Below are positions 1-61,626 of a stretch of 64,000 nucleotides of DNA, piece after piece. Under the pieces are notes generated by a model that had not been told where the DNA came from, did no database searches, and saw only the letters and a list, made by a program, of their open reading frames with translations. The DNA is from Patescibacteria group bacterium (GTDB lineage Bacteria; Patescibacteriota; Minisyncoccia; Phycocordibacterales; UBA918). Position 1 is the stretch's first letter. The number at the start of each line of letters is the position of its first letter. Both the position numbers and the translations under genes were made by a program. Where the stretch lies: contig JAIEOU010000005.1 in the NCBI GenBank assembly GCA_019750255.1, forward strand, positions 14,078-78,077, read 5' to 3'.

Positions 1-39
1 CCTTTTGAACCGGCCGTCAGTACGGGCCTGTAGGTTGCT

Positions 40-1872: not shown

Positions 1873-2218
1873 TGACGATAATTTCTTGCGTGACATGTAT
1901 GCCACGAAGTTTTCTCAAACCGGCCACACCGTCGACGCTGTTGACAATGGGGCGGCTGCGCTCACGAAACTAAGTTCTACCCAAGACTATGATGTTGTCA
2001 TGCTCGACATGGTAATGCCAGGCATGAGCGGGCTCGAGCTTTTGGTAAAGATTCGCGAAGAATTCCCCAAACTTAAAGCTAAGCTGATTGTTCTCTCAAA
2101 CCAAGGCCAAGAAGAAGATATTCGGGAGGCTACGGCAGCTGGTGCGTGCGCGTATATCATTAAAGCTGAGTCGGTACCAAGTGAGGTGCTGTCTAAGGTG
2201 GAGGCTGTGTGTGGTTAA
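1853..2218 (+). CDS. Single-domain response regulator (CheY-like receiver, PilH/PilG-like)
   Basis: MKILLVDDD... carries the phospho-acceptor Asp and K-motif (LSNQG) and has no output domain. The likely start (ATG 1853) overlaps the pilB stop. The ORF-track start at 1793 is probably too early. Confidence 0.75.
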   Translation: MKILLVDDDNFLRDMYATKFSQTGHTVDAVDNGAAALTKLSSTQDYDVVMLDMVMPGMSGLELLVKIREEFPKLKAKLIVLSNQGQEEDIREATAAGACAYIIKAESVPSEVLSKVEAVCG

Positions 2219-2241
2219 TTTAACCGGTAATTTAATTTAGT

Positions 2242-3309
2242 ATGGCCGTCGACTACAAGCGAGAACTGAATACGCTCATTGACCTGGTTATCGAAGAGCG
2301 TGCCTCAGACCTGCATTTTTCCGTCGGTGCACATCCGATTATCCGCGTCTCAGGTTCTCTGATTCCCTTGTTAAAAAAACCCATCCTTACCGATGAGGAT
2401 ATGCTCGGCTTTGCTAAGGCGCTCATCAGAAAAGATATCTATGAACGCTATGAAGGACGTAAAGAGGTGGACTTTTCTTTTGAGAATACCGAATCCGTCC
2501 GCTTTCGTGGCAATGCGTACTACCAACGCGGACGTATGGCAATTGCCCTTCGCCTCATTCCGAATGTCATTCGTACTTTTGCGGATTTAAATCTGCCGCC
2601 AATTCTGGAAAGCTTTACTCAGCGGCCACAGGGTTTCTTTTTGTGTGTTGGGCCAGTAGGGCAGGGAAAGTCTACGACGCTTGCAGCCATGGTAAATCAC
2701 ATTAACCAAACTCGTTCGGAGCACATCGTTACCATTGAGGACCCTATCGAGTACGTGTACACCGAAGACAAGGCGCTCATTGATCAGCGTGAAGTGGGTA
2801 TCGATACTGAAAGCTTCCAGGTTGCGCTCAACGCTGCCTTTCGTGAAGACGTTGATGTGATTTTGGTAGGTGAGATGCGGAATATGGAAACTATTTCAAC
2901 CGCCGTAACTGCGGCTGAAACCGGCCATTTAGTGTATTCGACCCTTCACACAAATGACGCCGCACAGACCATTAATCGAATCATCGATACGTTTCCGGGT
3001 GACCAGCAAAGCCAAATCCGCACCCAGCTAGCAGGGTCTCTCATTGCTATCTTCTCGCAGCGACTCATTCCACACATTGCGGGTGGTCTTGTGCCAGCGT
3101 ATGAGCTGCTTATCAACAACAGTGCGGTAGCTAACCTAATTCGAGAAAATCGCGTTCATGAGATTAATTCCGTCATCGAGACTGGGCTTGAGCAGGGAAT
3201 GATTGACATGAATCGTTCTCTGTTACGTTTGGTACAGAACGGAGATATTACCGTAGAGAACGCATTTACCTACTCAACCAACCCTAAAGGTCTCGAACGC
3301 CTCATGTAA
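2242..3309 (+). CDS. pilT: Twitching motility ATPase PilT (pilus retraction)
   Basis: 355 aa. Walker A GPVGQGKSTT, the AIRNLIRE-like C-terminal motif (AVANLIRENRVHEI) and a PilT-typical N-terminus. Confidence 0.85.
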   Translation: MAVDYKRELNTLIDLVIEERASDLHFSVGAHPIIRVSGSLIPLLKKPILTDEDMLGFAKALIRKDIYERYEGRKEVDFSFENTESVRFRGNAYYQRGRMAIALRLIPNVIRTFADLNLPPILESFTQRPQGFFLCVGPVGQGKSTTLAAMVNHINQTRSEHIVTIEDPIEYVYTEDKALIDQREVGIDTESFQVALNAAFREDVDVILVGEMRNMETISTAVTAAETGHLVYSTLHTNDAAQTINRIIDTFPGDQQSQIRTQLAGSLIAIFSQRLIPHIAGGLVPAYELLINNSAVANLIRENRVHEINSVIETGLEQGMIDMNRSLLRLVQNGDITVENAFTYSTNPKGLERLM

Positions 3310-3312
3310 TAT

Positions 3313-4530
3313 ATGCTTTTCAAATACATAGCAATCGATAAGGGGAATGTACAAAGGGAAGGCACCGTTGAGGCGGCCAGTATTGATGCCGCTATTTCAG
3401 CTGTACAAAAGCGTGGCTACACAGTAACCTCGATTGATCCAATTGACGAAAAAGGTTCGATAACTGATTTGCTTAATTTTGATTTTGCAATATTTCACAG
3501 CGTGTCAAACAAAGACATTGTTATTTTGTCTCGACAAATTTCCACGTTGTTTCAAGCGCATGTTTCACCACTGCGTATTTTCCGTCTCCTGTCGGCCGAG
3601 GTAGGAAATGCACAGCTGCAAATTGTAATGAATAAGATTGTTGATGACTTGCAAGCGGGGAGTTCAATTTCTCGGGCTTTGGCGGCCCATCCAAAGGTAT
3701 TCTCTTCCTTCTATGTCAACATGGTGCGGGCGGGGGAGGAATCGGGATCGCTCGAGAAATCCTTTGCCTACCTAGCCGACTACCTGGACCGTTCGTATGA
3801 AATTGTTGCAAAAGCCAGAAACGCTCTAGTCTACCCAGCCTTCGTGGTCACTATCTTTTTTGGGGTGATGGGCCTGATGCTCACCCTAGTAATTCCAAAG
3901 ATTGCCAAAATTTTGACTGACTCTGGGCAGGAGCTGCCGATTTATACAAAGATTGTTATTGGTCTTTCCGAGTTCTTAATTGGCTATCTTCCGTTTATAT
4001 TTATCGGTGTGGCTGCGACTGGGGTGGGGATGTGGCGTTTCGCCCGAACTGATGTTGGGCGCCGGACCATAGACGAGCTGAAAATCTCGCTCCCTGTTTT
4101 CGGTAATCTCCAGCGTAAGTTGTTGCTCACCCGCATCTGTGACAACCTCTCGACGATGCTTTCAAGTGGCGTATCGATGGTGCAAGCGCTCGAGGTGACA
4201 GCTGATGTGGTAGATAATACGGTCTTTAAAGAAATTGTTCAGTCGGCTCTCTTTGAAGTGAAGGGAGGACGGTCGTTTGCTGATTCCATCGCTGAGTATC
4301 CAGAAATTCCAACGGTTCTGTCACAAATGGCGCGCGTGGGTGAAGAAACCGGAAGTCTGTCGGAAATCATGACCACACTCGCCAATTTCTACCGACGTGA
4401 AGTGAACCAAGCAGTGGACACCATGATTGGGCTCATTGAACCAGCTATGATTGTGATGTTGGGTCTCGGTGTGGGTGTGCTCTTGGCATCGGTTTTGATG
4501 CCGATTTATAACCTCACCGGCAACTTCTAA
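3313..4530 (+). CDS. pilC: Type IV pilus inner-membrane platform protein PilC/GspF
   Basis: 405 aa with a duplicated GspF domain architecture and three TM segments. Sits between pilT and pilA. Confidence 0.85.
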   Translation: MLFKYIAIDKGNVQREGTVEAASIDAAISAVQKRGYTVTSIDPIDEKGSITDLLNFDFAIFHSVSNKDIVILSRQISTLFQAHVSPLRIFRLLSAEVGNAQLQIVMNKIVDDLQAGSSISRALAAHPKVFSSFYVNMVRAGEESGSLEKSFAYLADYLDRSYEIVAKARNALVYPAFVVTIFFGVMGLMLTLVIPKIAKILTDSGQELPIYTKIVIGLSEFLIGYLPFIFIGVAATGVGMWRFARTDVGRRTIDELKISLPVFGNLQRKLLLTRICDNLSTMLSSGVSMVQALEVTADVVDNTVFKEIVQSALFEVKGGRSFADSIAEYPEIPTVLSQMARVGEETGSLSEIMTTLANFYRREVNQAVDTMIGLIEPAMIVMLGLGVGVLLASVLMPIYNLTGNF

Positions 4531-4979
4531 GGAGAAACAGGAAGCGGCGAAGCCGCGACCATGTTTTCCTTATGCAGACGCCTCGTTACTTTCGAGCCTC
4601 AAAGCGAGGAAAGTAACGGCGGCGACCTGCGAAAGGAGACTTTGGATTGCTTCGCTGCGGCTCGCAAAGACGAATGCTGAATACGACTGCTTCGTCTCTG
4701 CGAGTTTACGAAGCAGTCCAGGGTTCCATACCCTTCTTTCGATTACATCACTAAGGCTCGCAAAGACGAAATATAATTTAACCCAATCCTACTAAGTAAT
4801 AGGTGCAGGGGCTTACGGTTTATACGGGAGGTTGTCCCCAGGTCTAGTTTTGTAAGCCGAAGCTGGTCGTATAATTGAGGCTAGCTACGCTACAACGTAG
4901 ATCTGTCGTTTACTATTCAGGTACACAGCTGATATCTGAATATAAAAAGACTTTATTTCAAAACGATTAATTTTAATTC

Positions 4980-5477
4980 ATGATCAAAACCATGCGGACC
5001 CGCGGTTTCACCCTCATCGAACTTCTCGTTGTAATCGCTATTATCGGTATCTTGGCCGCAACGGTACTTGCCGCCCTTGGTAACGCGCGAAGTAGCGGAA
5101 ACGACGCTTCGACGCAGTCGCAAGTTAATTCTGCCAAGGCTCAAGCTGAAGTGTATGCTAATGGTAATACAACAGCTCCCGGAAGTTATGTAGGCCTCTG
5201 TACTGCTGCGAACCCCAACAGCTTGGGTACACTCCTAACGGGTATCGCTCGTACTGCGCCCGGTACCGATGCTGCTGTATTGACTGCCACTGTACAGACT
5301 GCTAACACAGACGGTACTGGGGGTTCGATTAATTGCAGGGATGCCGCAACTACTTGGGTCTTGTCTGCGCCTCTTGCTCGCTCTACGGGAGGTTTCTTCT
5401 GTGCGGACAGTACTGGCTTTAGTGGCGTAAGAACCACGCCACTACCAGCAGCCAATACTGCTTGTCCAGCTTCTTAA
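4980..5477 (+). CDS. pilA: Type IV major pilin (prepilin, class III signal)
   Basis: N-terminus MIKTMRTRGFTLIELLVVIAIIGILAA matches the prepilin cleavage/methylation motif (G|FTLIE). Followed by a rho-independent terminator. Confidence 0.9.
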   Translation: MIKTMRTRGFTLIELLVVIAIIGILAATVLAALGNARSSGNDASTQSQVNSAKAQAEVYANGNTTAPGSYVGLCTAANPNSLGTLLTGIARTAPGTDAAVLTATVQTANTDGTGGSINCRDAATTWVLSAPLARSTGGFFCADSTGFSGVRTTPLPAANTACPAS

Positions 5478-5497
5478 CAATCTTACTGGATAAAAAA

Positions 5498-5522
5498 ACA
5501 CCCGTTCACGGGTGTTTTTTTA
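5498..5522 (+). terminator. Rho-independent terminator after pilA copy 1
   Basis: acacccg-ttca-cgggtgt stem-loop followed by T7. Confidence 0.8.
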
Positions 5523-5604
5523 TTGAAAAACCTACTGGGGAAATCCTACATAAGCACAATGGACTGTGTCATGATTAGGATAAACAATAATTCAACATAC
5601 CATA

Positions 5605-6102
5605 ATGCTTAAACAAACTTATCAAAAGGGCTTCACCCTCATCGAACTTCTCGTTGTAATCGCTATTATCGGTATCTTGGCCGCAACGGTACTTGCCGCC
5701 CTTGGTAACGCGCGAAGTAGTGGAAACGACGCTTCGACGCAGTCGCAGATAAACTCTGCCAAGGCTCAAGCTGAAGTCTATGCGACGGGGAATAACAATT
5801 CTTATGATGGGGTTTGTACGATTGCAAGCGCCAATAGTCTGGGTCCATTGCTGACAGGAATTGTAAGGACAGCACCAGGAAACAACACTCCTGTTATTGA
5901 CGGAGCGGTACAGACAGCAAACACCGATGGTACAGGTGGGACTATTAATTGTAATGACGCGCCTACCGCCTGGGCAGTGTCAGCGCCGCTCAATCGATCC
6001 ACTGGCGGATTCTTCTGTGCGGACAGTAGCGGATTTAGTGGAGTTCGTGTGACGCCGTTACCGGCGAGCGGTGCTACGGGTAGAGTGTGTCCTTCATCAT
6101 AA
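5605..6102 (+). CDS. pilA: Type IV pilin, second tandem paralog
   Basis: Same prepilin N-terminus. The first ~150 nt are nearly identical at DNA level to copy 1 (4998-5150 vs 5623-5775), and the C-terminal globular part diverges. Confidence 0.9.
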   Translation: MLKQTYQKGFTLIELLVVIAIIGILAATVLAALGNARSSGNDASTQSQINSAKAQAEVYATGNNNSYDGVCTIASANSLGPLLTGIVRTAPGNNTPVIDGAVQTANTDGTGGTINCNDAPTAWAVSAPLNRSTGGFFCADSSGFSGVRVTPLPASGATGRVCPSS

Positions 6103-6131
6103 TCTGATTCCGTTAAAAACAGGACTACATC

Positions 6132-6156
6132 AAAGAGCGCCACGAGGCGCTTTTTG
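6132..6156 (+). terminator. Rho-independent terminator after pilA copy 2
   Basis: aaagagcgcc-acga-ggcgcttttt. Confidence 0.7.
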
Positions 6157-6249
6157 TAAACTCCAGATTATTTGTGCTAAGCCTATAAGTGTTAATGGCG
6201 CAGCAACAGAAGACTCCTATGGTTAACTTTTGGCCACGGGAAGGGATGG

Positions 6250-7125
6250 ATGGGCTATAATAGGAACGTGTTTAGTCTAGCTACGCTCGGTCTGTCGACC
6301 CTCGTTCTTTCCATTATTGCCTTTGGCTTTGGAGCTATCGTCGGTAGCTTTCTTAATGTGGTGATTTATCGGTTACATACTGGCCGCTCTCTGCAAGGTC
6401 GGTCCCATTGTCTCTCGTGCGCAACTCCGCTCCGAGTGTGGGAGCTCATACCACTTTTTTCATATCTCGGTCTGCGGGGTCGTTGTAGTCACTGCCGGTC
6501 ACGGTTTACTGCGCGCTACTTTGGGGTTGAGCTTTTGACGGCGCTATTGTTTGTGTTGACGATGCTTTATTTTGCGACTGATGTGGTACTGGTCGGTATA
6601 TTTCTCTTTGTGATGTCACTGCTTGTGGTCGTATTTGTCTATGATCTTCGACACATGATTATTCCTGACGAATATGTCGTGGCGCTTACGCTTGCGGCGC
6701 TCGGCCGAGAATTTTATAGTGCGGTCGTTGTGCTCGGAACATGGGTACCGTTTCTCTACAGTGCATTCGCCGCTTCGACTGGGGCACTATTTTTCTACGC
6801 CCTCTGGTTTATGTCTGGAGGAAAATGGATTGGCTTTGGTGATGTTAAGCTCGCTTGGCCACTGGGACTTCTCCTTGGCAGTGGGGGAGTGTTCTCAATG
6901 GTGGTGTTTTCGTTCTGGATAGGGGCGGGGATAAGTCTATTGCTTCTTGCGCTCATGAAGCTCTCTGCCCGCAGTGGGGGAAAACCGTTCTTACCTTTCG
7001 GTCTCGGAACGCTTACAATGAAGAGTGCTGTTCCGTTTGCTCCTTTCTTGATTGTTAGTTTTCTTACAGTTCTTTTTTTCCAAGTTGATGTGCTCGCCCT
7101 TTTATCCTATGACTTCTTCCTCTAG
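6250..7125 (+). CDS. pilD: Prepilin peptidase PilD (A24 family, with N-methyltransferase Zn-finger)
   Basis: 291 aa, polytopic. Two CxxC pairs (CLSCATPL...CSHCRSRF) sit in the first cytoplasmic loop, and Asp-containing motifs are present. Confidence 0.85.
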   Translation: MGYNRNVFSLATLGLSTLVLSIIAFGFGAIVGSFLNVVIYRLHTGRSLQGRSHCLSCATPLRVWELIPLFSYLGLRGRCSHCRSRFTARYFGVELLTALLFVLTMLYFATDVVLVGIFLFVMSLLVVVFVYDLRHMIIPDEYVVALTLAALGREFYSAVVVLGTWVPFLYSAFAASTGALFFYALWFMSGGKWIGFGDVKLAWPLGLLLGSGGVFSMVVFSFWIGAGISLLLLALMKLSARSGGKPFLPFGLGTLTMKSAVPFAPFLIVSFLTVLFFQVDVLALLSYDFFL

Positions 7126-7726
7126 CACGAAGCCATGCAGAGCGCGTCTGCGCGCAGGTTTTGGTCTCATAGAACTCCTTGTGAGCATCAGTATCATGGT
7201 ACTCGTTACCTCGATTGTGCTCGCGCGGCACTCCGCCTTTAGCGGTACCGTACTTCTGAAATCACAGGCATATGAAATAGCGTTACGGCTACGCGAAATA
7301 CAGCTCTCGGCGGTGAGTGTAGCGACTTCGACTGTCGGCATCCGCTCGCACTATGGTATGCGTTTTGGTACAGCGGCTTCAGAAAATAGCGTCTACCCGG
7401 TTTTTGCGACTCCTATCCCAGCGGTCAATGGCTTCTACACTAATAATGCTTATTCTCTTGTTGGGACTCCGGGGTTACTCGATCAGCGCTTTGTGATTAA
7501 AGGAATTGACCTGAACTGCAGTTCTGTGCAATCAGCTACGGGAGTTATTATTATGTTTAAGCGTCCAAACTATGACGCTGAATTCCGAAGTGGGACTGGC
7601 GGAGCGCCGGCCTGCGCGGCTGAGTCAGTGAGTATTAGGATTGGCCCACGTGGTTCCCTCGTTGGTGATACCGCCTCGGAACGACGTGTTGTTGTTTCGA
7701 GCTCAGGTCAAATCACTGTAGAGTAA
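7109..7726 (+). CDS. Minor pilin / pseudopilin (GspH/FimT-like)
   Basis: After trimming to ATG 7109 the N-terminus reads ...RAGFGLIELLVSISIMVLV, a prepilin signal. Overlaps the pilD end. Confidence 0.7.
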   Translation: MTSSSSTKPCRARLRAGFGLIELLVSISIMVLVTSIVLARHSAFSGTVLLKSQAYEIALRLREIQLSAVSVATSTVGIRSHYGMRFGTAASENSVYPVFATPIPAVNGFYTNNAYSLVGTPGLLDQRFVIKGIDLNCSSVQSATGVIIMFKRPNYDAEFRSGTGGAPACAAESVSIRIGPRGSLVGDTASERRVVVSSSGQITVE

Positions 7727-7730
7727 TTTT

Positions 7731-8402
7731 ATGATTCCAACAAAGCTTTCACAGCGACGCGGTTTCACTCTCATCGAGATGATTGTTTCGTTGGGAGTGT
7801 TTTCGGTGGTGGTGACCATTACGGCCGGGGCGCTTATTACCTTAATTGCAACAAACCAGCGCTTTCAGCGTGAGCAAAATACGACAACGAACTTGGCCTT
7901 TGCGCTTGACAGTATGACTCGTGAAATTCGCACCGGGTCAAATTTTTACTGTGCGACCGGCACGGGAACACCTTTTGATAATGGAGCCCATGAACATCTT
8001 TCTGGTGGAGTCATTGACGCAGGGGTTGGCTCATCGTTGCTACGGCGCGATTGTCCAGACGGAAGAAATGGAGAAAGTCTCCATGGGATATCTTTCTTTG
8101 AGGGGGGGAATAGCATCACGACGGACCCGGGGGTTAGGCGTATCCTCTATTATTTTGACCTGACGGCCGGTACTATCTATCGACGTGTCGGGGATGAAAG
8201 GCCAGAACAGATTATTTCAAATACCATTGAAATTGTTGATGCTGATATTTATGTTACCGACACCAACATTATGCTTGCCACACCTGCGGATACAAAACAG
8301 CCCACAGTAACCATTCATATCGAAGCTCGGGATCGTTCTGAGCCAAGTAGTGAGACGTACCTCATGCAAACGACTGTAACGCAGCGGTCACTTGATATAT
8401 GA
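7731..8402 (+). CDS. Minor pilin (PilW/PilV-like prepilin)
   Basis: RRGFTLIEMIVSLGVFSVVV prepilin N-terminus. Confidence 0.7.
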   Translation: MIPTKLSQRRGFTLIEMIVSLGVFSVVVTITAGALITLIATNQRFQREQNTTTNLAFALDSMTREIRTGSNFYCATGTGTPFDNGAHEHLSGGVIDAGVGSSLLRRDCPDGRNGESLHGISFFEGGNSITTDPGVRRILYYFDLTAGTIYRRVGDERPEQIISNTIEIVDADIYVTDTNIMLATPADTKQPTVTIHIEARDRSEPSSETYLMQTTVTQRSLDI

Positions 8403-8993
8403 AAAATCTACTACCCAGCTTATTACAGTTAACGAGACATAAAAATGGTTTTTCACTGGTGGAAACGCTGGTCGCAGTCTCCATCCTTCTCCTTGTTGTG
8501 GTTGGTCCCTTGACGATTACGTCGCGGACGGCGAAAAGTAGCACCTTTTCGAGTGAGCAATTGACTGCTCAATTACTCGCTCAAGAAGGACTGGAACTGG
8601 TGGAAAAAGCGCGTAATGACTACATTCTTGAGAATTTCACCAATGCAGCTAACGGTGGCTGGGATGCATTCACCTCAGGAAGTGGTGTTTTTTCACAGTG
8701 CTTTGACACCGATGGTTGTGGTATCGACATTGAAGATTCTGGTGACATTAACTTTCCATTAAAGGCATGTGATATCGCCGGGAGTCCAGATCCGTGCGCA
8801 CTCTACCAAGGAGCGGCAGGTGAGCGGGCGCGGTATTCGCACACTACCGGTGGTACCCTGACTCCGTTTACTCGCACTGTGCGCTTTTACTCGACCACAA
8901 ATCCTGATCAGATTCGCGTGGAATCAACCGTTACCTGGCGTACGGGTTCCCTGATTGCCAATCAACGGGTAGAGCTCGAGACGTATTTATTTA

Positions 8994-9010
<17 letters not shown>
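8399..9010 (+). CDS. Minor pilin (prepilin-type N-terminus)
   Basis: NGFSLVETLVAVSILLLVVVGP prepilin motif. Overlaps neighbours by 4 nt. Confidence 0.65.
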
Positions 9011-16940: not shown

Positions 16941-17558
16941 ATGATAAATAAAAGTACCTTACAAAAGTTATATGGTGAAAAAAAGTATTCTTCTGTTCAG
17001 ATAGCTAAGGAGCGTGGCTGTTCACCGGGACAAGTTAATTACTGGCTGTCTAAGTATTGTATTAAGAAGCGATCAATTTCCGATGCGGTATATGAGAAAT
17101 CTAACCCTGGTGGGGATCCATTTAGTTTACTTAAGGTGCGCTCTAAAGAGGAGTGGTTTTTGTATGGTCTTGGTCTGGGGTTGTATTGGGGAGAAGGTAA
17201 TAAAGCTAATCGCCTAGCTGTTCGACTTGGTAACACTGACCCTGGTCTTGTCCGAACGTTTCTTCGTTTTCTCTCGACCATTTACCGTGTTGACACCAGT
17301 CGTCTACGATTTGGTTTACAAATTTTCTCAGATTTAGATCCGGTGGAAGCAAAAGCATTTTGGTCAAAGGAACTTGGTGTAAGTGCTACGCAATTCCAAA
17401 AAACAGCTACAGTCTCTCGAATCCGCCGCGGAACGTACACGCATAAGGCTGCACATGGTGTACTCACTGTTTATTTTTCAAATACTAAACTTCGTGCTAC
17501 TATCATGGCCGCAATTGAAAAATTGCAAAAGCAACAGAACAGTACACTGCCGATGTAG
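16941..17558 (+). CDS. HTH + LAGLIDADG-like (single-motif) putative homing endonuclease/maturase
   Basis: N-terminal HTH (SSVQIAKERGCSPGQVNYWLSKY). The motif GLGLYWGEGNK aligns to LAGLIDADGS (G-L-x-x-G-E-G-N). Its stop lies 10 nt inside the intron-containing tRNA-Thr. Paralog of 53323..53982. Confidence 0.5.
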   Translation: MINKSTLQKLYGEKKYSSVQIAKERGCSPGQVNYWLSKYCIKKRSISDAVYEKSNPGGDPFSLLKVRSKEEWFLYGLGLGLYWGEGNKANRLAVRLGNTDPGLVRTFLRFLSTIYRVDTSRLRFGLQIFSDLDPVEAKAFWSKELGVSATQFQKTATVSRIRRGTYTHKAAHGVLTVYFSNTKLRATIMAAIEKLQKQQNSTLPM

Positions 17559-17819
17559 CTCAGCTGGTAGAGCACTTCCATGGTGGGTCGCATGACCTTG
17601 CCCGTGCTTGCGGTAACGTGAGCAACGAATCCCGAATAACGGTTAATAGCCATGTGTTGGCCAAGACCGTGGCCTTCTTTGCAAGAAGGCCCGAACGACT
17701 GCCAAGGGAGCACCAATTAAATGGTGCAAGATACAGTCTAGCCCCTCGATATGCACATAAATAAACGAGGGTGTAAGCGAAGGAAGAGGTCTCCGGTTCG
17801 ATCCCGGACATCGGCTCCA
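17549..17819 (+). tRNA. tRNA-Thr (GGT) interrupted by a ~195-nt group I-like intron between positions 36 and 37
   Basis: 5' exon GCCGATG-TAGCTCAGCTGGTAGAGC-A-CTTCC-AUGGU (17549-17584). 3' exon AA-GGAAG-AGGTC-TCCGGTTCGATCCCGGA-CATCGGC-T-CCA (17780-17819). Acceptor, D, anticodon and T stems all pair. The rule that the 5' exon ends in U and the intron ends in G is met only for a 36/37 insertion. Confidence 0.7.
17585..17779 (+). mobile_element. Candidate group I intron (IC3-like, same anticodon-loop position as the Azoarcus tRNA-Ile and Agrobacterium tRNA-Arg introns)
   Basis: R/S-like elements form P7: cgaacGACUGccaa and aagauaCAGUCuag (compare S consensus AAGAUAUAGUCC). It ends in G (omegaG) directly before the 3' exon. 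No ORF lies inside. Confidence 0.55.
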
Positions 17820-22687: not shown

Positions 22688-22987
22688 ATGATCAAAGAAC
22701 AGCAAGTGCTCGACGAGTGGTTTAAGGCAAAGGGCTGGCCTTACTGGTCTCCGCATGAGATATTGGCGCGACTCATGGAAGAAACGGGAGAATTTGCTCG
22801 TCTCGTTAATCACGAGTATGGTCCGAAGAAGAAAAAAGACGGTGAGGCAACACAAGATTTTGAAGATGAACTAGGGGATATTCTCTATACTCTGGCTTGT
22901 TTTGCGAACACTCACCACATTGACCTCGACAGCGCCCTCGCGCGCAGTCTTGAAAAGGTAGCTGGTCGGGACAAAGACCGCTTCTAA
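22688..22987 (+). CDS. MazG-like nucleotide pyrophosphohydrolase (small single-domain)
   Basis: EETGEFARLV...ELGDILYTLACFAN is the EExxE/ExxD MazG helical motif. Confidence 0.7.
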   Translation: MIKEQQVLDEWFKAKGWPYWSPHEILARLMEETGEFARLVNHEYGPKKKKDGEATQDFEDELGDILYTLACFANTHHIDLDSALARSLEKVAGRDKDRF

Positions 22988-23042
22988 GGCCGGCACTTTT
23001 ATGGTAGTCTTTCGGAGCGCAAATTGCGCACCGAAGCAGATT

Positions 23043-23060
23043 TGGGATATCGTCTAATGG
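23043..23060 (+). repeat. Orphan 18-nt copy of the tRNA-Gln 5' end (direct repeat with 23186-23203)
   Basis: tgggatatcgtctaatgg is identical to tRNA positions 1-18. Its inverted complement gcctttccattagacgg sits at 23150-23166 and forms a ~16-bp hairpin. Confidence 0.8.
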
Positions 23061-23185
23061 AAAGCAAAGCTTCCTTGAACGGCGCTCGCACAATGGATGT
23101 AAGTACTCTTCCATCCCCGTGCTCGCTTGTTCAAGTAGGACAGCGAACTGCCTTTCCATTAGACGGACGGCAGGGTGAAACGTAT

Positions 23186-23256
23186 TGGGATATCGTCTAA
23201 TGGTAGGACAGAGGCCTTTGAAGCCTTTAATTGGGGTTCGAATCCCTGTATCCCAG
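23186..23256 (+). tRNA. tRNA-Gln (TTG)
   Basis: U1-A72 acceptor (UGGGAUA/UAUCCCA), anticodon loop cuUUGaa, T-arm GGGGTTCGAATCCCTG and discriminator G. Resembles E. coli tRNA-Gln. Confidence 0.85.
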
Positions 23257-23262
23257 CTCATA

Positions 23263-23292
23263 GAAAAACAACCACTCTTGTGGTTGTTTTTC
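23263..23292 (+). terminator. Rho-independent terminator after tRNA-Gln (centre of a nested palindrome)
   Basis: aaaaacaaccac-tctt-gtggttgttttt. Confidence 0.8.
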
Positions 23293-23295
23293 GTT

Positions 23296-23321
23296 TATGA
23301 GCTGGGATACAGGGATTCGAA
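23296..23321 (-). repeat. Inverted 26-nt copy of the tRNA-Gln 3' half
   Basis: tatgagctgggatacagggattcgaa is the reverse complement of tRNA 23231-23259. Confidence 0.85.
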
Positions 23322-23433
23322 AAGCGCAGCAATGTGAGGAGCTTTTACTAAAGCGACGAACCAGCGAGCTGGGGTCGAGAGCACTTACTAGAATTGGAGC
23401 GTCAGCGAACAATTATAGTTAGTGACTCGTGAC

Positions 23434-23454
23434 CGAATCCCTGTATCCCAGCTC
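23434..23454 (+). repeat. Direct 21-nt partial copy of the tRNA-Gln 3' half, followed by a terminator-like hairpin
   Basis: cgaatccctgtatcccagctc, then aaaacacccg-tca-gggtgctttt (23458-23481). Confidence 0.8.
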
Positions 23455-23486
23455 GAGTAAAACACCCGTCAGGGTGCTTTTACGTA

Positions 23487-23537
23487 GTGCTGGGATACGT
23501 AAGGTCTGGGAGACCTTGCGTCAGGGATTCGAAACCC
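23487..23537 (-). repeat. Second inverted tRNA-Gln 3' fragment, split by a 23-nt palindromic insert
   Basis: gctgggatac + gtAAGGTCTgggAGACCTTgcgt + cagggattcgaa. Confidence 0.65.
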
Positions 23538-23710
23538 GATTGAGCATAATTTTGCGCGAAGTGAACTATATGTACGATTGCAATAGTCCCTATGGATTTT
23601 TAGAGCCCTTCAGCTCGTTGGATTGTAAAAAATATCGGTCTTAACTGGTGATACACTGATTACTCGAACAGGCACATGTTGATATTCTTTAAATCATACC
23701 GACTCCCACT

Positions 23711-25243
23711 TTGAAACTCATGAGACAAATATTATTTGGCTTTTTACTGCTCCTCGTTTTACCGCTTCCGTTTTTGGCCGATGCACACAGTAATGAAGAT
23801 TTAGAACCGGTCACAATTATAATGACCGAACGCGGCTATGATGTAAAAACTTTAGAAATTGAAGTCGGGCAAAGGGTCATATTTAAGAATGAAGGGTCTG
23901 AGGGCCTTTGGCCGGCATCAAACATTCATCCTACTCACGAAATATATTCAGAATTTGACCCGAAAAAACCTATTCTGCCTGGTCAGTCGTGGGAGTTCAC
24001 CTTCGATAAGGAAGGAGAGTGGAGATTTCACGATCACCTGCTTCCGACCATTGTCGGCACCATCAGAGTTGTGTCCTCAAATGATGTGAGTGTGGAGAGT
24101 AAAGAAGTTCACGGTGAGCGCTCTGGCGTCTTCAGTAAAGTAAAAACATTTTTTGTAAATTTGATTAACTCACTTTTTGCATCCAATCGGTCGACAAGTG
24201 AAGTCGCTGAAAACACTCTGAATCTGCCAACGGTAACAAGGGACACTAAGGAGATTTTTTCAAACGACGAACTCCTTAAGTCATATGTGCAAAGCTTTGG
24301 ACCTAAAGCGACTGTCGAGTATTTGCATGAGCTTTCAGCTGAGTTTGGCGACTGCCATCAAAGCGCCCACGCTGCTGGTCATTTTGCGTATGAACTTTAT
24401 GGTAGCGAAGCGTTTCAAGCTTGTAGCGCTCAGTGTCACTCAGGTTGCTACCATGGAGCAACCGAAGCCTATTTTGGTGAACATGGTACCAAGGACTTAG
24501 CAAAAAATTTGGGTATTATCTGTGGCTCAGTATCCAATCCATTTTTTAGCCATCAGTGCATTCATGGCGTAGGTCATGGTTTAACCGCCTGGACCAGTTA
24601 TGATGTGCCTGAAGCCCTTAGGGCCTGTGACTTGCTTCCAAGCGGGCATGAGTCTTGCTACACGGGTGTTTTTATGGAAAACGTAGTTGGTGGAATTGCT
24701 AAAGATGAAGCAAAAAACAGTGAGGAAACTGCCCATGTTACCCAATACCTAAGTCAAGACCCGCAGTTTCCCTGCACTGTGGTAGATGAGAAATATAAAG
24801 CTTCATGTTACATATTCCAAACGTCTCGAATGGTCCAGTTGTATGATGGGGATTTTTCTAAGGTAGCTAAAGCCTGTCTTGCTGCTCCCGAGCTGTATCG
24901 AGCACATTGTTTCCAGAGTATGGGGCGTGATGTTGGTGGAGTAAATCGGGGAAATCCGAGCAGAGCGATTGCTGAATGTAAACATGTACCAGATGGAAAC
25001 TTCCGTAGTGATTGTTTGGTGGGGGCGGTACAAGATTCATTCTGGGACTCGTCAGGACACGATGTGGCCATAAATTTTTGCAAACTTTTAGTCGATAGCA
25101 CTGAAAAACATCACTGCTATAAAACAATTATTGAACGAGCGCCGCAGGTAATTGAAGCTAAAACCGACCGCCACATATTCTGCAATAAAGTTGAAACTCC
25201 TTTTCAGCAGGACTGTGCTGCAGTCATTGATCTAAACATTTAA
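23711..25243 (+). CDS. Secreted protein: cupredoxin-like N-domain plus degenerate Cys-pair repeat region
   Basis: Signal peptide (LLLLVLPLPFLADA). The N-domain fits a plastocyanin-like pattern (V.G..V.F.N...H...H...PG.S.EFTF..GE..FHDHL.P.IVG.I.V) but lacks the Cys ligand. The C-terminal ~350 aa carry about 8 Cys-x(n)-Cys/His-Gly modules. Confidence 0.5.
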   Translation: MKLMRQILFGFLLLLVLPLPFLADAHSNEDLEPVTIIMTERGYDVKTLEIEVGQRVIFKNEGSEGLWPASNIHPTHEIYSEFDPKKPILPGQSWEFTFDKEGEWRFHDHLLPTIVGTIRVVSSNDVSVESKEVHGERSGVFSKVKTFFVNLINSLFASNRSTSEVAENTLNLPTVTRDTKEIFSNDELLKSYVQSFGPKATVEYLHELSAEFGDCHQSAHAAGHFAYELYGSEAFQACSAQCHSGCYHGATEAYFGEHGTKDLAKNLGIICGSVSNPFFSHQCIHGVGHGLTAWTSYDVPEALRACDLLPSGHESCYTGVFMENVVGGIAKDEAKNSEETAHVTQYLSQDPQFPCTVVDEKYKASCYIFQTSRMVQLYDGDFSKVAKACLAAPELYRAHCFQSMGRDVGGVNRGNPSRAIAECKHVPDGNFRSDCLVGAVQDSFWDSSGHDVAINFCKLLVDSTEKHHCYKTIIERAPQVIEAKTDRHIFCNKVETPFQQDCAAVIDLNI

Positions 25244-54476: not shown

Positions 54477-54549
54477 GCTTGGGTAGCTCAGTTGGTAGAG
54501 CATTTCCCTGAAGAGGAAGGGGTCGCCGGTTCGAGCCCGGCCCCAAGCA
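54477..54549 (+). tRNA. tRNA-Phe (GAA)
   Basis: GCTTGGG-TA-GCTCAGTTGGTAGAGC...anticodon loop cuGAAga...GCCGGTTCGAGCCCGGC-CCCAAGC-A. Confidence 0.85.
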
Positions 54550-54552
54550 CAA

Positions 54553-54594
54553 GAAAAGCGCCTTCGGGCGCTTTTTGCGTGCTTGGGGCCGGGC
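54553..54594. repeat. Terminator hairpin plus inverted 16-nt copy of the tRNA-Phe 3' end (nested palindrome)
   Basis: aaaagcgcc-ttcg-ggcgctttt, then gtgcttggggccgggc, which is the reverse complement of gcccggccccaagcac. Confidence 0.8.
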
Positions 54595-54671
54595 GTGAAG
54601 GGGGTCGGGGAAACAGTTGTTTCCCCGTGGAGGAAGGCAGTGAGCGACGTTAGGAGCGAGCGTTGGAAAAC

Positions 54672-54697
54672 CGTGGGTTTCCAAAGTGCCTGGGCCC
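54672..54697 (+). repeat. 26-nt direct repeat, copy 1 (cgtgggtttccaaagtgccYRggccc)
   Basis: A second copy at 55088-55113 differs at 2 positions. Confidence 0.7.
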
Positions 54698-54820
54698 TAA
54701 GCTATATTACAAACTAATGCACCTTTCGTCCGGGCTCGAACGCCGGAGCGTTGTCACGAGCGTGCTTCCTAGCGCGAGTGATCACGAGGCGCGTCCAGCG
54801 GTCGTAATGACCGTAGCGTG

Positions 54821-54925
54821 AGAAGTGAATAAATGTCACTTCGCAAGACTCATTGAGGCACTATATGAGCGGTAGCGAAATATAGAACCCAATGAGTGGA
54901 CAGCTTCTGTAAGAAGTTAGAAAAA
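54821..54925. repeat. Family B dispersed hairpin repeat, copy 2
   Basis: See 52212..52318. Confidence 0.6.
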
Positions 54926-54931
54926 GCGGGA

Positions 54932-54943
54932 CGAGCCCGGCCC
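54932..54943 (+). repeat. Direct partial copy of the tRNA-Phe T-arm/acceptor (cgagcccggccc)
   Basis: 12-nt identity to tRNA 54532-54543. Confidence 0.55.
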
Positions 54944-54961
54944 TAATATGTAACCAAGCCC

Positions 54962-55042
54962 TGGATTGCTTCGTTGCGACTCGCAAAGACGAGGACCTCG
55001 CCGAGTGGAGGTCGAGCGAGTGAGATAGATTGTGAGCGAAGC
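54962..55042. repeat. Family A dispersed hairpin repeat, copy 2 (ggattgcttcg..ctcgcaaagacga...cgaagc)
   Basis: Shares about a 30-nt core with 4643-4718, plus a half-copy at 4753-4776. Both fold as long imperfect hairpins. Confidence 0.6.
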
Positions 55043-55067
55043 TAAACAAAGTATGCACAAGAGTGAC

Positions 55068-55081
55068 CGAGCCCGGCCCAA
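55068..55081 (+). repeat. Second direct partial copy of the tRNA-Phe 3' end (cgagcccggcccaa)
   Basis: 14-nt identity to tRNA 54532-54545. Confidence 0.55.
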
Positions 55082-55198
55082 CATTCTCGTGGGTTTCCAA
55101 AGTGCCCAGGCCCGAAGCAAATGTATCCTACTAACTTCGAATAAAAAAATATGATATCCGCAAAAAGAAACCGCTCCTTTAGGAGCGGTTGTCTCGTA

Positions 55199-61263: not shown

Positions 61264-61478
61264 TAGTACAGGGTAGCGCGTAAGTGAGTGGAGTCAAGGA
61301 AGGGTGCGGGACTCGACCCGCAATCGCGGATTTTGTTGCGTCTTTAAGAGTAATTATTTACGGACTCGGTCACGAATCACTAAGTATATTTGTTCGTCTG
61401 CGACTCCAAATCTACTAAGTGTTCTTGACCACGGCTCACTGGTTCGTCGCCCAAGGGAAGGGGCGACTCACATCGCTG

Positions 61479-61504
61479 CGCCTTTCGAGTCCTGTGTCGC
61501 GCAC
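61479..61504 (+). repeat. Inverted, degenerate copy of the tRNA-Val 3' end
   Basis: The reverse complement gtgcgcgacacaggactcgaaaggcg matches 61553-61578 at 22 of 26 positions. A nested hairpin (gggtcatgc-aca-gcatgaccc) separates the two copies. Confidence 0.7.
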
Positions 61505-61553
61505 ATAAAGCAAAGAAGGGTCATGCTGTGCATGACCCGACTTATTGCTTTAG

Positions 61554-61626
61554 TGCGCGATACAGGACTCGAACCTGTGACCTCCACAATGTCAATGTGA
61601 TGCTCTACCAGCTGAGCTAACCGCGC
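61554..61626 (-). tRNA. tRNA-Val (GAC)
   Basis: The reverse complement is GCGCGGT-TA-GCTCAGCTGGTAGAGC...anticodon loop uuGACau...GGTTCGAGTCC...ATCGCGC-A. Confidence 0.85.

Follow-up and report, generated by a model that had tools for sequence, protein, structure and literature searches.

The window analyzed here, the whole 64,000-nt stretch of Patescibacteria DNA under study (assembly GCA_019750255.1, contig JAIEOU010000005.1, positions 14,078 to 78,077), carries three tRNA genes, for tRNA-Gln, tRNA-Phe, and tRNA-Val, in which the 3' part of the gene is repeated in inverted orientation just beyond a terminator-like hairpin (Table 1). A preliminary description of the sequence had pointed out these three inverted copies, and all of them are present where it placed them or within a few bases. 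At each gene, the inverted copy starts at T54 of the T-loop and continues past the discriminator into the trailer. The resulting palindrome has arms of 39 nt with 87% complementarity at tRNA-Gln (23237-23275 and 23283-23321), 33 nt with 85% at tRNA-Phe (54530-54562 and 54567-54599), and 21 nt with 95% at tRNA-Val (61484-61504 and 61553-61573), where RNAfold predicts a hairpin of ~40 bp that includes the nested terminator. The same description found the pattern missing at tRNA-Met, -Asp, -Thr, and -Arg, and indeed the five other tRNAs called by ARAGORN (Met, Asp, Met, Thr, and Arg) lack such a copy; their local scores do not exceed 6, compared to 16 to 21 for Gln, Phe, and Val.

Table 1. Features of the tRNA-Gln, tRNA-Phe, and tRNA-Val loci (window positions)
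Locus	Feature	Position	Strand	Evidence and remarks
Gln	Displaced copy of tRNA-Gln nt 1-19 (relic of old 5' end)	23042..23060	+	100% direct repeat of 23185-23203
Gln	5'-side inserted segment, between 5' relic and tRNA-Gln	23061..23185	+	
Gln	tRNA-Gln(UUG)	23186..23257	+	ARAGORN; Rfam, 62.8 bits; 3' part from T54 (23237) is left palindrome arm
Gln	Terminator-like hairpin T1 (AAAAACAACCAC tctt GTGGTTGTTTTT), palindrome center	23264..23291	+	Sequence, folds
Gln	Inverted copy y' of tRNA-Gln T54 to C74 plus trailer	23296..23321	+	Repeats; 25 Watson-Crick pairs with tRNA 3' part
Gln	Module A (P1, internal loop, P2, P3), GTGAC end	23322..23433	+	nhmmer E = 1e-35 vs Val copy; covariance model 95.5 bits, E = 6e-22
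Gln	Distal direct copy, tRNA-Gln C56 to 3' end plus 3 nt (displaced old 3' end)	23434..23454	+	21/21 identical to 23239-23259; 100% complementary to 23299-23319
Gln	Older terminator-like hairpin T2, after displaced 3' end	23459..23481	+	Terminator scan match 23463-23476
Gln	Second, older inverted copy of tRNA-Gln 3' part, interrupted by 21-nt hairpin (23499-23519)	23489..23533	+	Sequence, k-mers
Gln	Type-B-like module start (ACCCGATTGAGC...)	23534 onward	+	Motif also in L025, L053, L062, L027, L065
Phe	tRNA-Phe(GAA)	54477..54550	+	ARAGORN, Rfam; 3' part from T54 (54530) is left palindrome arm
Phe	Terminator-like hairpin (AAAAGCGCC ttcg GGCGCTTTT)	54554..54575	+	Fold; symmetric
Phe	Inverted copy y' of tRNA-Phe 3' part	54580..54599	+	2 mismatches in T-loop part; score 16
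Phe	Stack of decayed older layers behind tRNA-Phe	54600..55118	+	k-mers, repeats, alignment
Phe	Stack: different module ending AAAGTGCC, then apparent relic GGGCCCTAAGC	relic 54691-54702		Read from sequence
Phe	Stack: inverted T-arm copy	54727-54745		
Phe	Stack: direct relic	54932-54945		
Phe	Stack: degenerate module A	54981-55068		Pattern match 55010-55068; covariance model 21.7 bits, E = 0.0027
Phe	Stack: relic CGAGCCCGGCCC after degenerate module A	55068-55081		
Phe	Stack: second AAAGTGCC-type end	55088-55118		
Val	tRNA-Val(GAC)	61553..61626	-	ARAGORN, Rfam; 3' part (61553-61573) is one palindrome arm
Val	Trailer plus terminator-like nested hairpin	61505..61552	-	Folds; terminator scan match 61538-61518, minus strand
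Val	Inverted copy y' of tRNA-Val 3' part	61479..61504	-	1 mismatch; 24 Watson-Crick pairs with tRNA 3' part
Val	Module A, second full copy in window	61369..61483	-	nhmmer E = 5e-39; covariance model 89.9 bits
Val	Truncated distal direct copy of tRNA-Val 3' part (CGAGTCCG)	61361..61368	-	

The central hairpin at tRNA-Val was flagged by a terminator scan on the tRNA strand and the one at tRNA-Phe on the minus strand only, while T1 at tRNA-Gln was missed by this simple scan because its T-run is absorbed into the palindrome stem. Three features of these loci had been overlooked earlier: the conserved module past the inverted copy, the extra direct 3' copies, and a mirror-image arrangement at the 5' end of tRNA-Gln. 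In the latter, positions 23156-23165 within the 5'-side segment are a 10-nt inverted copy of tRNA-Gln positions 10-19. The segment 23061-23185 was considered as a reversed module A and rejected, as an nhmmer profile built without this segment does not find it and only the arrangement mirrors. Similar 5' arrangements, with a displaced 5' copy upstream, occur at 6 of 81 tRNAs in related loci and at none in controls. A look-up of the exact sequence of the 510-amino-acid protein adjoining tRNA-Gln gave no match.

The preliminary description regarded the inverted copies as a recurrent design, a view that would fall if a scan of this and related genomes found them no more often than expected by chance. 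When each of 82 tRNAs from the window and related loci was compared, by its own 3' 24 nt, to the 200 nt downstream of it, 36 had an inverted copy, against 0 in the upstream control and 2 when the downstream region of a different tRNA was used. Inverted copies hence recur behind the tRNAs of related loci far beyond chance, and the design is indeed recurrent. The structures at tRNA-Gln and tRNA-Val are reproduced gap-free in independent assemblies of the same species (Logan contigs, 99.6 to 100% identical), which excludes an assembly artifact; the species was detected in samples DRR851307, DRR851322, DRR851323, DRR851327, and SRR15085122.

The inverted copy is part of a unit of ~200 nt, which on the tRNA strand runs from the tRNA 3' part (y) through the trailer, the terminator-like hairpin (T), the inverted copy (y'), and the module to a direct copy of the tRNA 3' part. 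The y' segment is often interrupted by a small hairpin with a CTGC-type loop, and the module (~100 to 115 nt) consists of a 3-bp P1, an internal loop, a variable P2, a long conserved P3, and a GTGAC end. The terminal direct copy is often decayed and is followed by what appears to be the original trailer and terminator of the gene. The module copies at tRNA-Gln and tRNA-Val match each other with nhmmer E values of 1e-35 to 5e-39, and a divergent third copy lies behind tRNA-Phe. A search pattern with 25 fixed bases, for which the estimated chance expectation was ~0.03, identified 63 loci (65 matches) in 185,579 species genomes, all of them Patescibacteria, and had 0 matches in 2.9 million viral contigs. 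Wherever a tRNA was called at a module locus, it was located just upstream on the same strand, and ~16 tRNA identities are represented. In 447 kb of loci, chosen for containing the module, a covariance model detected 95 module copies, with 49 lying within 150 nt of a tRNA, 16 in tRNA-started chains, and 9 at locus edges.

The fold of the module is supported by covariation and is specific to the tRNA-sense strand. Of all cells in the predicted pairs, 98.9% were paired compared to 27 to 37% in slid controls, and 12 pairs had compensatory changes. A tally from the pair tables gave ~44 wobble cells overall against 5 A.C, with G.U at 59:114 in 31 of 34 module sequences. The module remains near consensus in genomes whose coding DNA is only 65 to 74% identical, but this conservation figure is inflated by ascertainment, since the search pattern itself fixed 25 of the 62 core positions, and a much stronger conservation of the module relative to coding DNA can be claimed only with that reservation. 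Two other readings of the module were rejected: a K-turn in the P1/P2 internal loop, where the fourth nucleotide covaries as a Watson-Crick pair, and a small open reading frame from a conserved ATG in P2, where neither frame nor length is conserved.

The junctions fall into two classes. In class 1 (T-loop, 55|56), the distal copy starts from C56 and y' reaches T54, and in class 2 (acceptor end, 71|72), the distal copy starts from position 72 and y' reaches position 70, giving a direct repeat of 19 nt or 3 nt depending on the class. G69 is present at 15/15 class 2 sites, and the match between y' and the tRNA itself is limited to 5 nt in this class. A G-N-N-C motif would fit both junction positions, which is suggestive. 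The distal copy ends around position 74; it is identical over 19/19 nt in 10 of 23 class 1 loci and frequently diverged or truncated. Comparison of y' to the two direct copies showed it to be nearer the proximal tRNA copy in 10 loci and equally near both in 13, with no locus where the distal copy was nearer, and y' is ~94% complementary to the functional tRNA (mean of per-locus values) even with a decayed distal copy. Pooled over loci, the palindrome arms form 607 Watson-Crick pairs with 13 G.T and ~10 mismatches (97% Watson-Crick); a strand test on the arms gave 13 G.T versus 3 A.C, a weak result in view of the small numbers and the asymmetric counting. At tRNA-Val of the window and at two related loci (L036 and L056), the module is intact despite a truncated distal copy, and such retention may indicate selection in place and a function rather than a purely selfish element. 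A reading of y' as a primer-binding site was discarded, as y' matches the gene and its trailer and not the CCA end.

Orthologous tRNAs are occupied differently in different genomes. At tRNA-Phe, two loci (L017 and L036) are class 1 and one (L055) is class 2, while the window has a stack; at tRNA-Val, class 1 is found in the window and at L013, and class 2 at L068. Another locus, L026, shares synteny with the window on the upstream side of tRNA-Gln yet has a different module type. These differences in class and type represent independent events. Tandem or nested arrays are found in the window (Gln and Phe) and at L047, L049, L043, and L058.

It had also been suggested that each primary transcript could fold into the long palindrome and thereby sequester the tRNA 3' half. 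This holds thermodynamically for read-through RNA: the predicted fold of tRNA-Gln with its downstream region reaches -76.3 kcal/mol and disrupts the acceptor and T stems, compared to -43.8 kcal/mol with an intact acceptor stem for RNA ending at the terminator. The inverted copy lies beyond the terminator-like hairpin, however, and would therefore be missing from transcripts that stop at this predicted terminator. The further proposal of an alternative processing or termination structure is not supported as a self-contained device of the tRNA gene, since the palindrome forms just one end of a larger insertion that also comprises a conserved module and a displaced 3' end, and since the units are present at only some tRNAs, differ between orthologous tRNAs of related genomes, and stack in tandem. 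The other role proposed, a recombination or att-like site, fits the evidence much better.

Our searches for a partner of the units were negative. A Pfam scan found no recombinase, transposase, or reverse transcriptase among the ~59 open reading frames of the window, no integrase or cargo was found in the module neighborhoods or the window, TnpA (a Y1 HUH transposase) and TnpB were absent from the window and the 8-kb module neighborhoods, and no nuclease gene adjoined a module in these neighborhoods. Protein co-occurrence was equally low, with the commonest family present in 8 of 68 module neighborhoods (8 kb). With Rfam 15, the window yielded only tRNAs and RNase P and no match to the module at the gathering threshold, and the region 22980-23720 gave nothing credible at E values up to 10. 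No sigma-70-like promoter for the module was found at the units of the window. The literature that we searched, including a paper on tRNA introns in Patescibacteria, held no prior description of such units, and the element family is apparently undescribed.

On balance, we lean toward the view that the inverted tRNA 3' halves belong to a family of non-autonomous insertion elements of small size (~200 nt) that are site specific and reside in the 3' part of Patescibacteria tRNA genes. This view starts from the conserved architecture, the exclusive association with tRNAs, the discrete junctions, and the strand-specific covarying fold, together with distal copies that decay while y' is maintained, the stacked arrangement of units, and orthologous tRNAs that were occupied independently, and from these we infer that the units are mobile and in which direction the events ran. 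The element would enter the tRNA gene at T55/C56 in the T-loop or at 71/72 at the end of the acceptor stem. We propose that the gene survives insertion because the proximal side supplies it with a new 3' end and a new terminator, while the original 3' end would be pushed downstream and decay there. Later insertions at the same tRNA would push older ones outward and produce stacks. The long palindrome (tRNA 3' part, T, and y') would be the left-end hairpin of the element and P3 its right-end hairpin. The specificity of the fold for the tRNA-sense strand points to a single-stranded intermediate, which could be single-stranded DNA, as for IS200/IS605, integron attC, and CTX-phage integration, or RNA, and mobilization would probably be performed by a trans-acting enzyme encoded elsewhere. 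The matching of y and y' to each new tRNA would involve rewriting. An empty site is expected to read GGTTCGAATCCCTGTATCCCAGCTCGAG, the intact T-loop joined to the old trailer, and a circle or excision junction would have ...TCGTGAC joined to CGAATCC...CAGCTCATAG. A search of metagenomes for the empty-site allele of the tRNA-Gln unit returned 0 matches and was uninformative, and no excised or circular form of a unit was observed.

Several observations speak against parts of this scheme. The tRNA-matching parts of the element differ at every tRNA, and we know of no transposition or integration mechanism that rewrites the target-matching parts of an element. Simple carry-over of a foreign 3' end is unsupported: tRNAs with an element show no excess of wobble or mismatched pairs in their acceptor and T stems compared to tRNAs without one (P = 0.87). 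Across tRNAs, terminator type is not generally linked to module subtype (r = 0.05), with a few shared sub-lineages only, so that the left boundary of the element is uncertain, and this linkage was not used as evidence that the unit moves. For an active form made of RNA, the position of the module behind a terminator-like hairpin, without a sigma-70-like promoter, is a further counterpoint. It is conceivable, but in our judgment rather unlikely, that the units represent a new class of programmable element, in which a compact scaffold of RNA or folded single-stranded DNA carries a target-complementary arm of ~20 nt rewritten from each occupied tRNA gene, with the scaffold directing a trans-acting or host enzyme to tRNA 3' parts.

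The module and y' could alternatively be tRNA-specific guide or antisense RNAs, in which the conserved scaffold (P1 to P3) recruits a protein for tRNA processing, modification, or surveillance, or for homing as omega-RNAs do for TnpB/IscB, and 20 to 25 nt are complementary to the neighboring tRNA, its gene, or its precursor. We consider this improbable though plausible; it overlaps with the mobile-element reading, and a unit could be both. A strand-specific covarying fold resembles that of a functional RNA, and y' keeps its complementarity to the functional tRNA despite distal decay, with arms almost entirely in Watson-Crick pairs. The near-consensus state of the module in diverged genomes also agrees with it, subject to the ascertainment inflation described above. 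The omega-RNA of TnpB consists of a scaffold with a 3' guide, and the units would have an analogous layout, as GTGAC is directly followed by flank-derived sequence from C56 (or C72) onward. In addition, y' with its inserted hairpin has the connectivity of a tRNA 5' strand, that is, acceptor 5' strand, side arm, and T-stem 5' strand. Against this stand the lack of any Rfam match even at an E value of 10, of an effector gene nearby, and of a promoter-like site for a module located behind a terminator-like hairpin. Moreover, y' complements the gene or precursor including the trailer and not the mature CCA-ended tRNA, y' of class 2 shares just 5 nt with the tRNA itself, and the units occur at some tRNAs only, with orthologous tRNAs differing between genomes.

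Template switching during replication is an established route to the perfecting of imperfect palindromes, and the palindromes could be functionless by-products of such switching at terminator hairpins (quasi-palindrome extension), with the module an unrelated repeat. The palindromes are centered exactly on terminator-like hairpins with the trailer included, switching could explain how y' matches a selected tRNA sequence without selection of its own, and the conserved TCGAA at the end of class 1 y' may have served as re-annealing microhomology. We nevertheless find this account very unlikely, as it leaves unexplained the same conserved module always at a fixed position after y', the distal direct copies and the stop of y' at exactly T54 or N70 at dozens of independent loci, and the missing palindrome at module-free tRNAs such as Met, Asp, Thr, and Arg of the window; at best, template switching is a maintenance mechanism within the element. 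Another explanation would regard the units as what is left, in the form of decayed attL/attR scars, of ordinary prophages or genomic islands that encoded an integrase and formerly resided in these tRNA genes. A direct repeat that begins in the T-loop or at the acceptor end and extends to the tRNA 3' terminus is a classical integrase signature, and the two junction positions coincide with crossover sublocations of integrases in tRNA genes, which Williams is said to have described in 2002. This explanation is hardly credible given the constant small size and the conserved internal module in >60 diverged genomes, the use of ~16 different tRNAs by one family, the absence of integrase or cargo from every neighborhood and the window and of viral matches, and the presence of an inverted copy, which is not part of classical att sites.

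Among known systems, integrative elements at tRNA genes share with the units the tRNA 3' part as target, the preservation of a functional gene, a direct repeat that covers the tRNA end from the T-loop or acceptor end onward, a displaced original 3' end at the far junction, and the accretion of arrays at one tRNA. Phage Ms6 has its attB in the T-loop of tRNA-Ala (PMC1762012). The units likewise have an attL/attR-like block of identity from the crossover point to the tRNA 3' end, but they differ from integrative elements in being ~200 nt long without integrase or cargo, in using ~16 tRNA identities within one family, and in adding an inverted copy, which pairs with the tRNA 3' part in a near-perfect hairpin, and a conserved, strand-specific structured module.

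IS200/IS605 elements have strand-specific structure, hairpins near both ends, and no classical terminal inverted repeats; the hairpins at the two ends are alike, and insertion takes place 3' of a fixed tetra- or pentanucleotide without duplicating the target. In their omega-RNA (reRNA), a structured right-end module is followed by flanking target sequence at the guide position. The units resemble them in strand-specific structure, hairpins near both ends, a possible short motif, and a right-end module followed by target flank. In contrast to IS200/IS605, the left (tRNA 3' part, T, and y') and right (P3) hairpins of the units are unrelated in sequence, 19 nt (or 3 nt) of the target are duplicated, a long target-complementary arm is carried, no TnpA/TnpB is found nearby, and there is no Rfam match; the latter and the lack of an adjacent nuclease also set the units apart from OMEGA guide RNAs. 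The integron attC site and the attP(+) hairpin of CTX phage (IMEX) are similar in logic only, in that an inverted repeat inside the element folds on one strand and thereby reproduces the chromosomal target; in the units, the corresponding duplex is that of the tRNA 3' part with y'. The units lack an integron integrase context and a dif-like site, their hairpin stem ends essentially at the junction, and two recombinase-binding arms are not evident.

The rtT repeats of the Escherichia coli tyrT operon (RF00391) are repeated units behind a tRNA gene, each containing the last ~19 nt of that tRNA. They share with our units the location downstream of a tRNA gene and the inclusion of its 3' end, but they occur as simple direct repeats in tandem, at a single locus in a single species, with neither inverted copy nor conserved hairpin module, and the rtT family of Rfam has no match in the window. 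MITEs, REP elements, and Rickettsia palindromic elements are, like the units, small, gene-less, structured, and multicopy in compact genomes. The units differ from them in having no conserved terminal inverted repeats and in flanks that are target derived and different for each tRNA; as to MITEs, which also have a short target-site duplication of fixed length, the inverted segments of the units are local tRNA copies and the direct repeat is 19 nt or 3 nt by class. The IStron is an insertion built not to destroy the product of its host gene (PMC4227781). The product is spared in both cases, in the units by a replacement gene end and not by splicing.

tRNA genes are classic landing pads for mobile DNA, and the known users of these sites are large elements carrying an integrase specific for one tRNA. 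This is in contrast to the gene-less unit of ~200 nt found here, which has a conserved fold and occurs at the 3' ends of many tRNAs, with related arrangements at 5' ends, which in every case matches the local tRNA, and which is spread across the ultra-small CPR/Patescibacteria, a major and poorly understood radiation. The units account for much of the unusually long intergenic DNA beside tRNAs in these compact genomes and probably cause contigs to break near tRNAs in CPR assemblies. If they are mobile, this implies a novel mechanism that copies the target into the element in both orientations and a novel enzyme, possibly nucleic acid guided. If they are host RNAs, they would constitute a large family of tRNA-specific antisense RNAs in bacteria. 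Should the possibility of a programmable element turn out to be true, the smallest known bacterial genomes would harbor a tRNA-programmed, self-retargeting mobile guide system. Either way, the units represent a new and abundant family of structured RNA or single-stranded DNA.

The 3' parts of three of the eight tRNA genes in the window (called by ARAGORN; Rfam finds the same eight and one RNase P RNA) are repeated in inverted orientation just past a GC-rich hairpin, the copied stretch beginning at T54 in the T-loop and passing the discriminator into the trailer. The preliminary description had placed this arrangement at tRNA-Gln, tRNA-Phe and tRNA-Val only, and our results bear this out, with local scores of 16 to 21 at these genes versus at most 6 at the two tRNA-Met genes, tRNA-Asp, tRNA-Thr and tRNA-Arg. 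Since other samples have Logan contigs of this species (99.6 to 100% identical) in which the Gln and Val structures are collinear, these are real genomic features. The suggestion that the transcript could sequester the tRNA 3' half agrees with predicted folds, in which inclusion of the inverted copy favors a hairpin of about 40 bp and breaks the acceptor and T stems; tRNA-Gln RNA ending at the hairpin keeps its acceptor stem at -43.8 kcal/mol, RNA with the inverted copy reaches -76.3 kcal/mol, and Val and Phe are similar. Chance, the alternative raised at the time, does not account for the copies, as a tRNA's 3' end recurs inverted in its own downstream sequence for 36 of 82 tRNAs, in the upstream sequence for none, and downstream of a mismatched tRNA for 2.

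The inverted copy (y', the copied tRNA 3' part being y) belongs to a larger unit whose order on the tRNA strand is invariant: tRNA, trailer and terminator-like hairpin, y', a conserved structured module (module A), a distal direct copy of the tRNA 3' part, and then an apparent older trailer and terminator. A hairpin with a loop of CTGC or CCTGCG often splits y' at a point about 13 nt ahead of the module. In the window, the Gln and Val loci have in common a module of about 115 nt directly after y' (nhmmer E = 1e-35 to 5e-39), which ends in TCGTGAC and is abutted by a direct copy starting at C56; only 8 nt of this distal copy are left at tRNA-Val. The Gln distal copy is followed by a second terminator-like hairpin, a second inverted copy with a 21-nt hairpin inside it and then a different module, and the approximately 650 nt of noncoding DNA behind tRNA-Phe hold four further tRNA-Phe 3' fragments, which lie in both orientations, along with a degenerate module A. 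A second module type occurs in the same place behind the inverted tRNA copy, with an inserted-hairpin loop of the CTGGGAG type and not CTGC, and because it holds this position, several module families have one common architecture.

Repeats and tRNA-linked features by window position, with matching loci from other Patescibacteria genomes (L numbers)
Feature	Position or locus	Strand	Description
tRNA-Gln palindrome arms	23237-23275 / 23283-23321		39 nt, 87% complementary
tRNA-Phe palindrome arms	54530-54562 / 54567-54599		33 nt, 85% complementary
tRNA-Val palindrome arms	61484-61504 / 61553-61573		21 nt, 95% complementary
Distal direct copy, tRNA-Gln	23434-23454		21/21 identical
Second module type	23534-~23600; L025, L027, L053, L062, L065		GCCYGATTGAGC, hairpin, GCCAATTGGGGTACTGA, hairpin
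5'-side duplication, tRNA-Gln	23042-23185		First 19 nt duplicated 143 nt upstream, partial inverted copy between
Mirror-image 5' loci besides the window	L021, L026, L029; L009, L047		tRNA-Gln; tRNA-Ser
Interrupted tRNA gene	17548-17810	+	Insert of ~190 nt in anticodon loop; 5' half GCCGATGTAGCTCAGCTGGTAGAGCACTTCC..., 3' half ...GGAAGAGGTCTCCGGTTCGATCCCGGACATCGGCTCCA
219-aa ORF	53323-53982	+	Overlaps start of tRNA-Arg(CCU) at 53945, stops inside tRNA 5' part
Other intergenic repeat family	4529-4631; 56561-56937 (three copies)	+; -	Directly past protein-gene stop codons
tRNA-like stretch downstream of tRNA-Val unit	61290-61330	-	GCGGGTCGAGTCCCGCACCC, resembles another tRNA's T-arm and acceptor 3' strand
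Two adjacent 165-aa genes	5004-5169 / 5629-5794; 5292-5449 / 5908-6065		Blocks 93% and 72% identical

Module A is built of a 3-bp P1, a 3x2 internal loop (GNA/GA), a variable P2 hairpin and, after GG, a long P3 hairpin whose internal loops are conserved; an Rfam search gave no match to it. Over 34 sequences, 98.9% of cells were paired, versus 27 to 37% with partners slid; both sides had changed in 12 pairs, one P1 position had four pair types and no shuffle reached the observed covariation. A G.U pair was present at 59:114 in 31 of the 34, and our tally from the pair tables gave about 44 wobble cells in all versus 5 A.C cells. As wobbles become C.A mismatches on the opposite strand, the fold is strand specific and the folded strand is the tRNA-sense one.

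A degenerate search pattern, made from positions common to the three window copies (25 fixed bases) and matching nothing in shuffled window sequence, found 63 loci among 185,579 species with one genome each. All were from Patescibacteria (Kaiserbacteria, Paceibacterota, Parcubacteria, Nomurabacteria and others), and 2.9 million viral contigs gave no match. Wherever a tRNA was called in a locus it lay on the same strand just upstream of the module, the identities being Gly, Arg, Ser, Val, Leu, Phe, Gln, Glu, Thr, Lys, His, Ala, Trp, Asn, Tyr and Pro. With a covariance model built from 34 copies, 95 non-overlapping modules were found in the 447 kb of pattern-matched loci, 49 of them within 150 nt of a tRNA 3' end, 16 in tRNA-started chains and 9 at locus edges; judged by eye, most of the others come after apparent tRNA 3' ends missed by ARAGORN. 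Inverted 3' copies are also present at 11 of 41 tRNAs without an exact module-A core, and the modules there are divergent or different. The P3 core has a mean identity of 85%, but we discount this figure because the pattern had fixed 25 of the 62 positions, and we treat it only as evidence for constraint at those positions.

Two classes of junction were seen across loci. In class 1, C56 is the first base of the distal copy and T54 the limit of y'; in class 2 the distal copy comprises just C72-N73-C74, with y' extending to position 70. In both, y' runs exactly 2 nt past the distal-copy start, and in class 2 these 2 nt are tRNA specific. The end of the direct repeat is near position 74. The two junction positions appear to coincide with integrase crossover sublocations known in tRNA genes. 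A G-N-N-C motif, with the junction after the C, fits both classes and also the end of the module itself, where GACC pairs with GGTC at the base of P3. G69 was found in 15 of 15 class 2 sites versus a background of 0.44 to 0.56; as these sites represent about eight tRNA species, this is no more than suggestive. In six distal copies (L009, L028, L040, L049, L052 and L067) the sequence is CGA-AC-TTCC, an additional AC lying between A58 and T59; the module ends in this dinucleotide too (GTG-AC), and the additional AC may be the footprint of an earlier insertion or excision.

The inverted copy tracks the functional tRNA: the proximal copy is the better match to y' in 10 loci and the distal copy in none, with 13 ties. 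By our average y' is about 94% matched where the distal copy has diverged, has indels or is truncated. Over 38 loci the palindrome arms have 607 Watson-Crick pairs, 13 G.T pairs and about 10 mismatches. The genomes are deeply diverged (65 to 74% DNA identity in syntenic coding regions), and orthologous tRNAs differ between them in class or type: tRNA-Phe is class 1 in L017 and L036, class 2 in L055 and a stack of layers in the window; tRNA-Val is class 1 in the window and L013 and class 2 in L068; and L026, syntenic with the window upstream of tRNA-Gln, has a different module. Units in tandem or nested are common.

Other repeats and tRNA-linked features were also found. In a mirror-image arrangement at 6 of 81 tRNAs versus none in controls, nucleotides 1 to about 12 to 19 are copied directly about 120 to 140 nt upstream, with a partial inverted copy between; the repeat in L021 also takes in about 27 nt of upstream sequence, and the window tRNA-Gln segment is unrelated to module A by nhmmer. 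The interrupted tRNA gene was called by neither ARAGORN nor Rfam, and its insert probably belongs to the group I introns that are reported to be frequent in tRNA genes of Patescibacteria (PMC13011429). The 219-aa ORF encodes a helix-turn-helix at its N terminus (weak Pfam HTH_38) and a motif that we read as LAGLIDADG-like (LAALYWGEGTK). It has homologues in five other CPR loci, that of L032 just upstream of tRNA-Gly(GCC), and may be a free-standing homing-endonuclease-like gene tied to tRNA genes. The tRNA-like stretch could be what is left of another tRNA gene or of an older layer. The other intergenic repeats follow a T2SS-F-like gene and ValRS and match the module-A model only weakly (E = 0.04 to 0.2). 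The last 14 nt of the ValRS gene including the stop (ctgtgcagaaataa) recur just past the first repeat unit (56835-56822), which by sequence has the logic of the tRNA units: functional end, element, displaced end. Both 165-aa genes, inside a type IV pilus gene cluster (1-9000), have prepilin-type N-terminal methylation motifs and are a recent tandem duplication.

Taken as a set, these features are those expected of tRNA genes whose 3' part has taken up site-specific insertions repeatedly: the gene is intact, its old 3' end is displaced and decaying, junctions are discrete, units stack, occupancy is patchy and nonorthologous and the internal module is conserved. The inverted copy would then be part of the element, forming a left-end hairpin with the tRNA 3' part. 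The strand-specific module fold points to a single-stranded intermediate, which could be ssDNA, by analogy with IS200/IS605, attC and CTX hairpins, or RNA. y and y' match each tRNA exactly, including the 2 nt past the junction and the local trailer, and this would require templating from the target, possibly by fold-back synthesis from the central hairpin or by template switching after insertion that perfects the palindrome.

The main rival, which does not exclude insertion, is that the module and y' are a functional tRNA-specific guide or antisense RNA; this is favored by the maintenance of both at sites with a decayed distal copy. However, a terminator-like hairpin stands in front of the module, occupancy is patchy and y' is complementary to the gene and its trailer, not to the mature tRNA. 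Such an RNA would also be without promoter and effector: a search of the window for promoter-like sites found no sigma-70-like promoter ahead of the module, and no protein family recurred in more than 8 of 68 module neighborhoods, the recurring ones being housekeeping genes or local synteny. No candidate enzyme for moving the element turned up either, as the proteins encoded in the window all have housekeeping roles (type IV pilus components, LigA, GatCA, RF, FtsEX, CTP synthase, LepA, MurJ, ValRS, TsaD and others).

Scars left by ordinary islands would be larger and less uniform than these units, and would not be so empty of genes. Among known elements, the units come nearest to integrative elements that target tRNA genes and restore the gene's 3' end. 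They have this logic in common with them but not the defining feature, the integrase; key hallmarks of IS200/IS605 elements, omega-RNAs and MITEs are lacking as well. We found no earlier description of such units in the literature searched or in Rfam, and we consider it possible, if rather unlikely, that they are a categorically new kind, a self-retargeting nucleic-acid-guided element.
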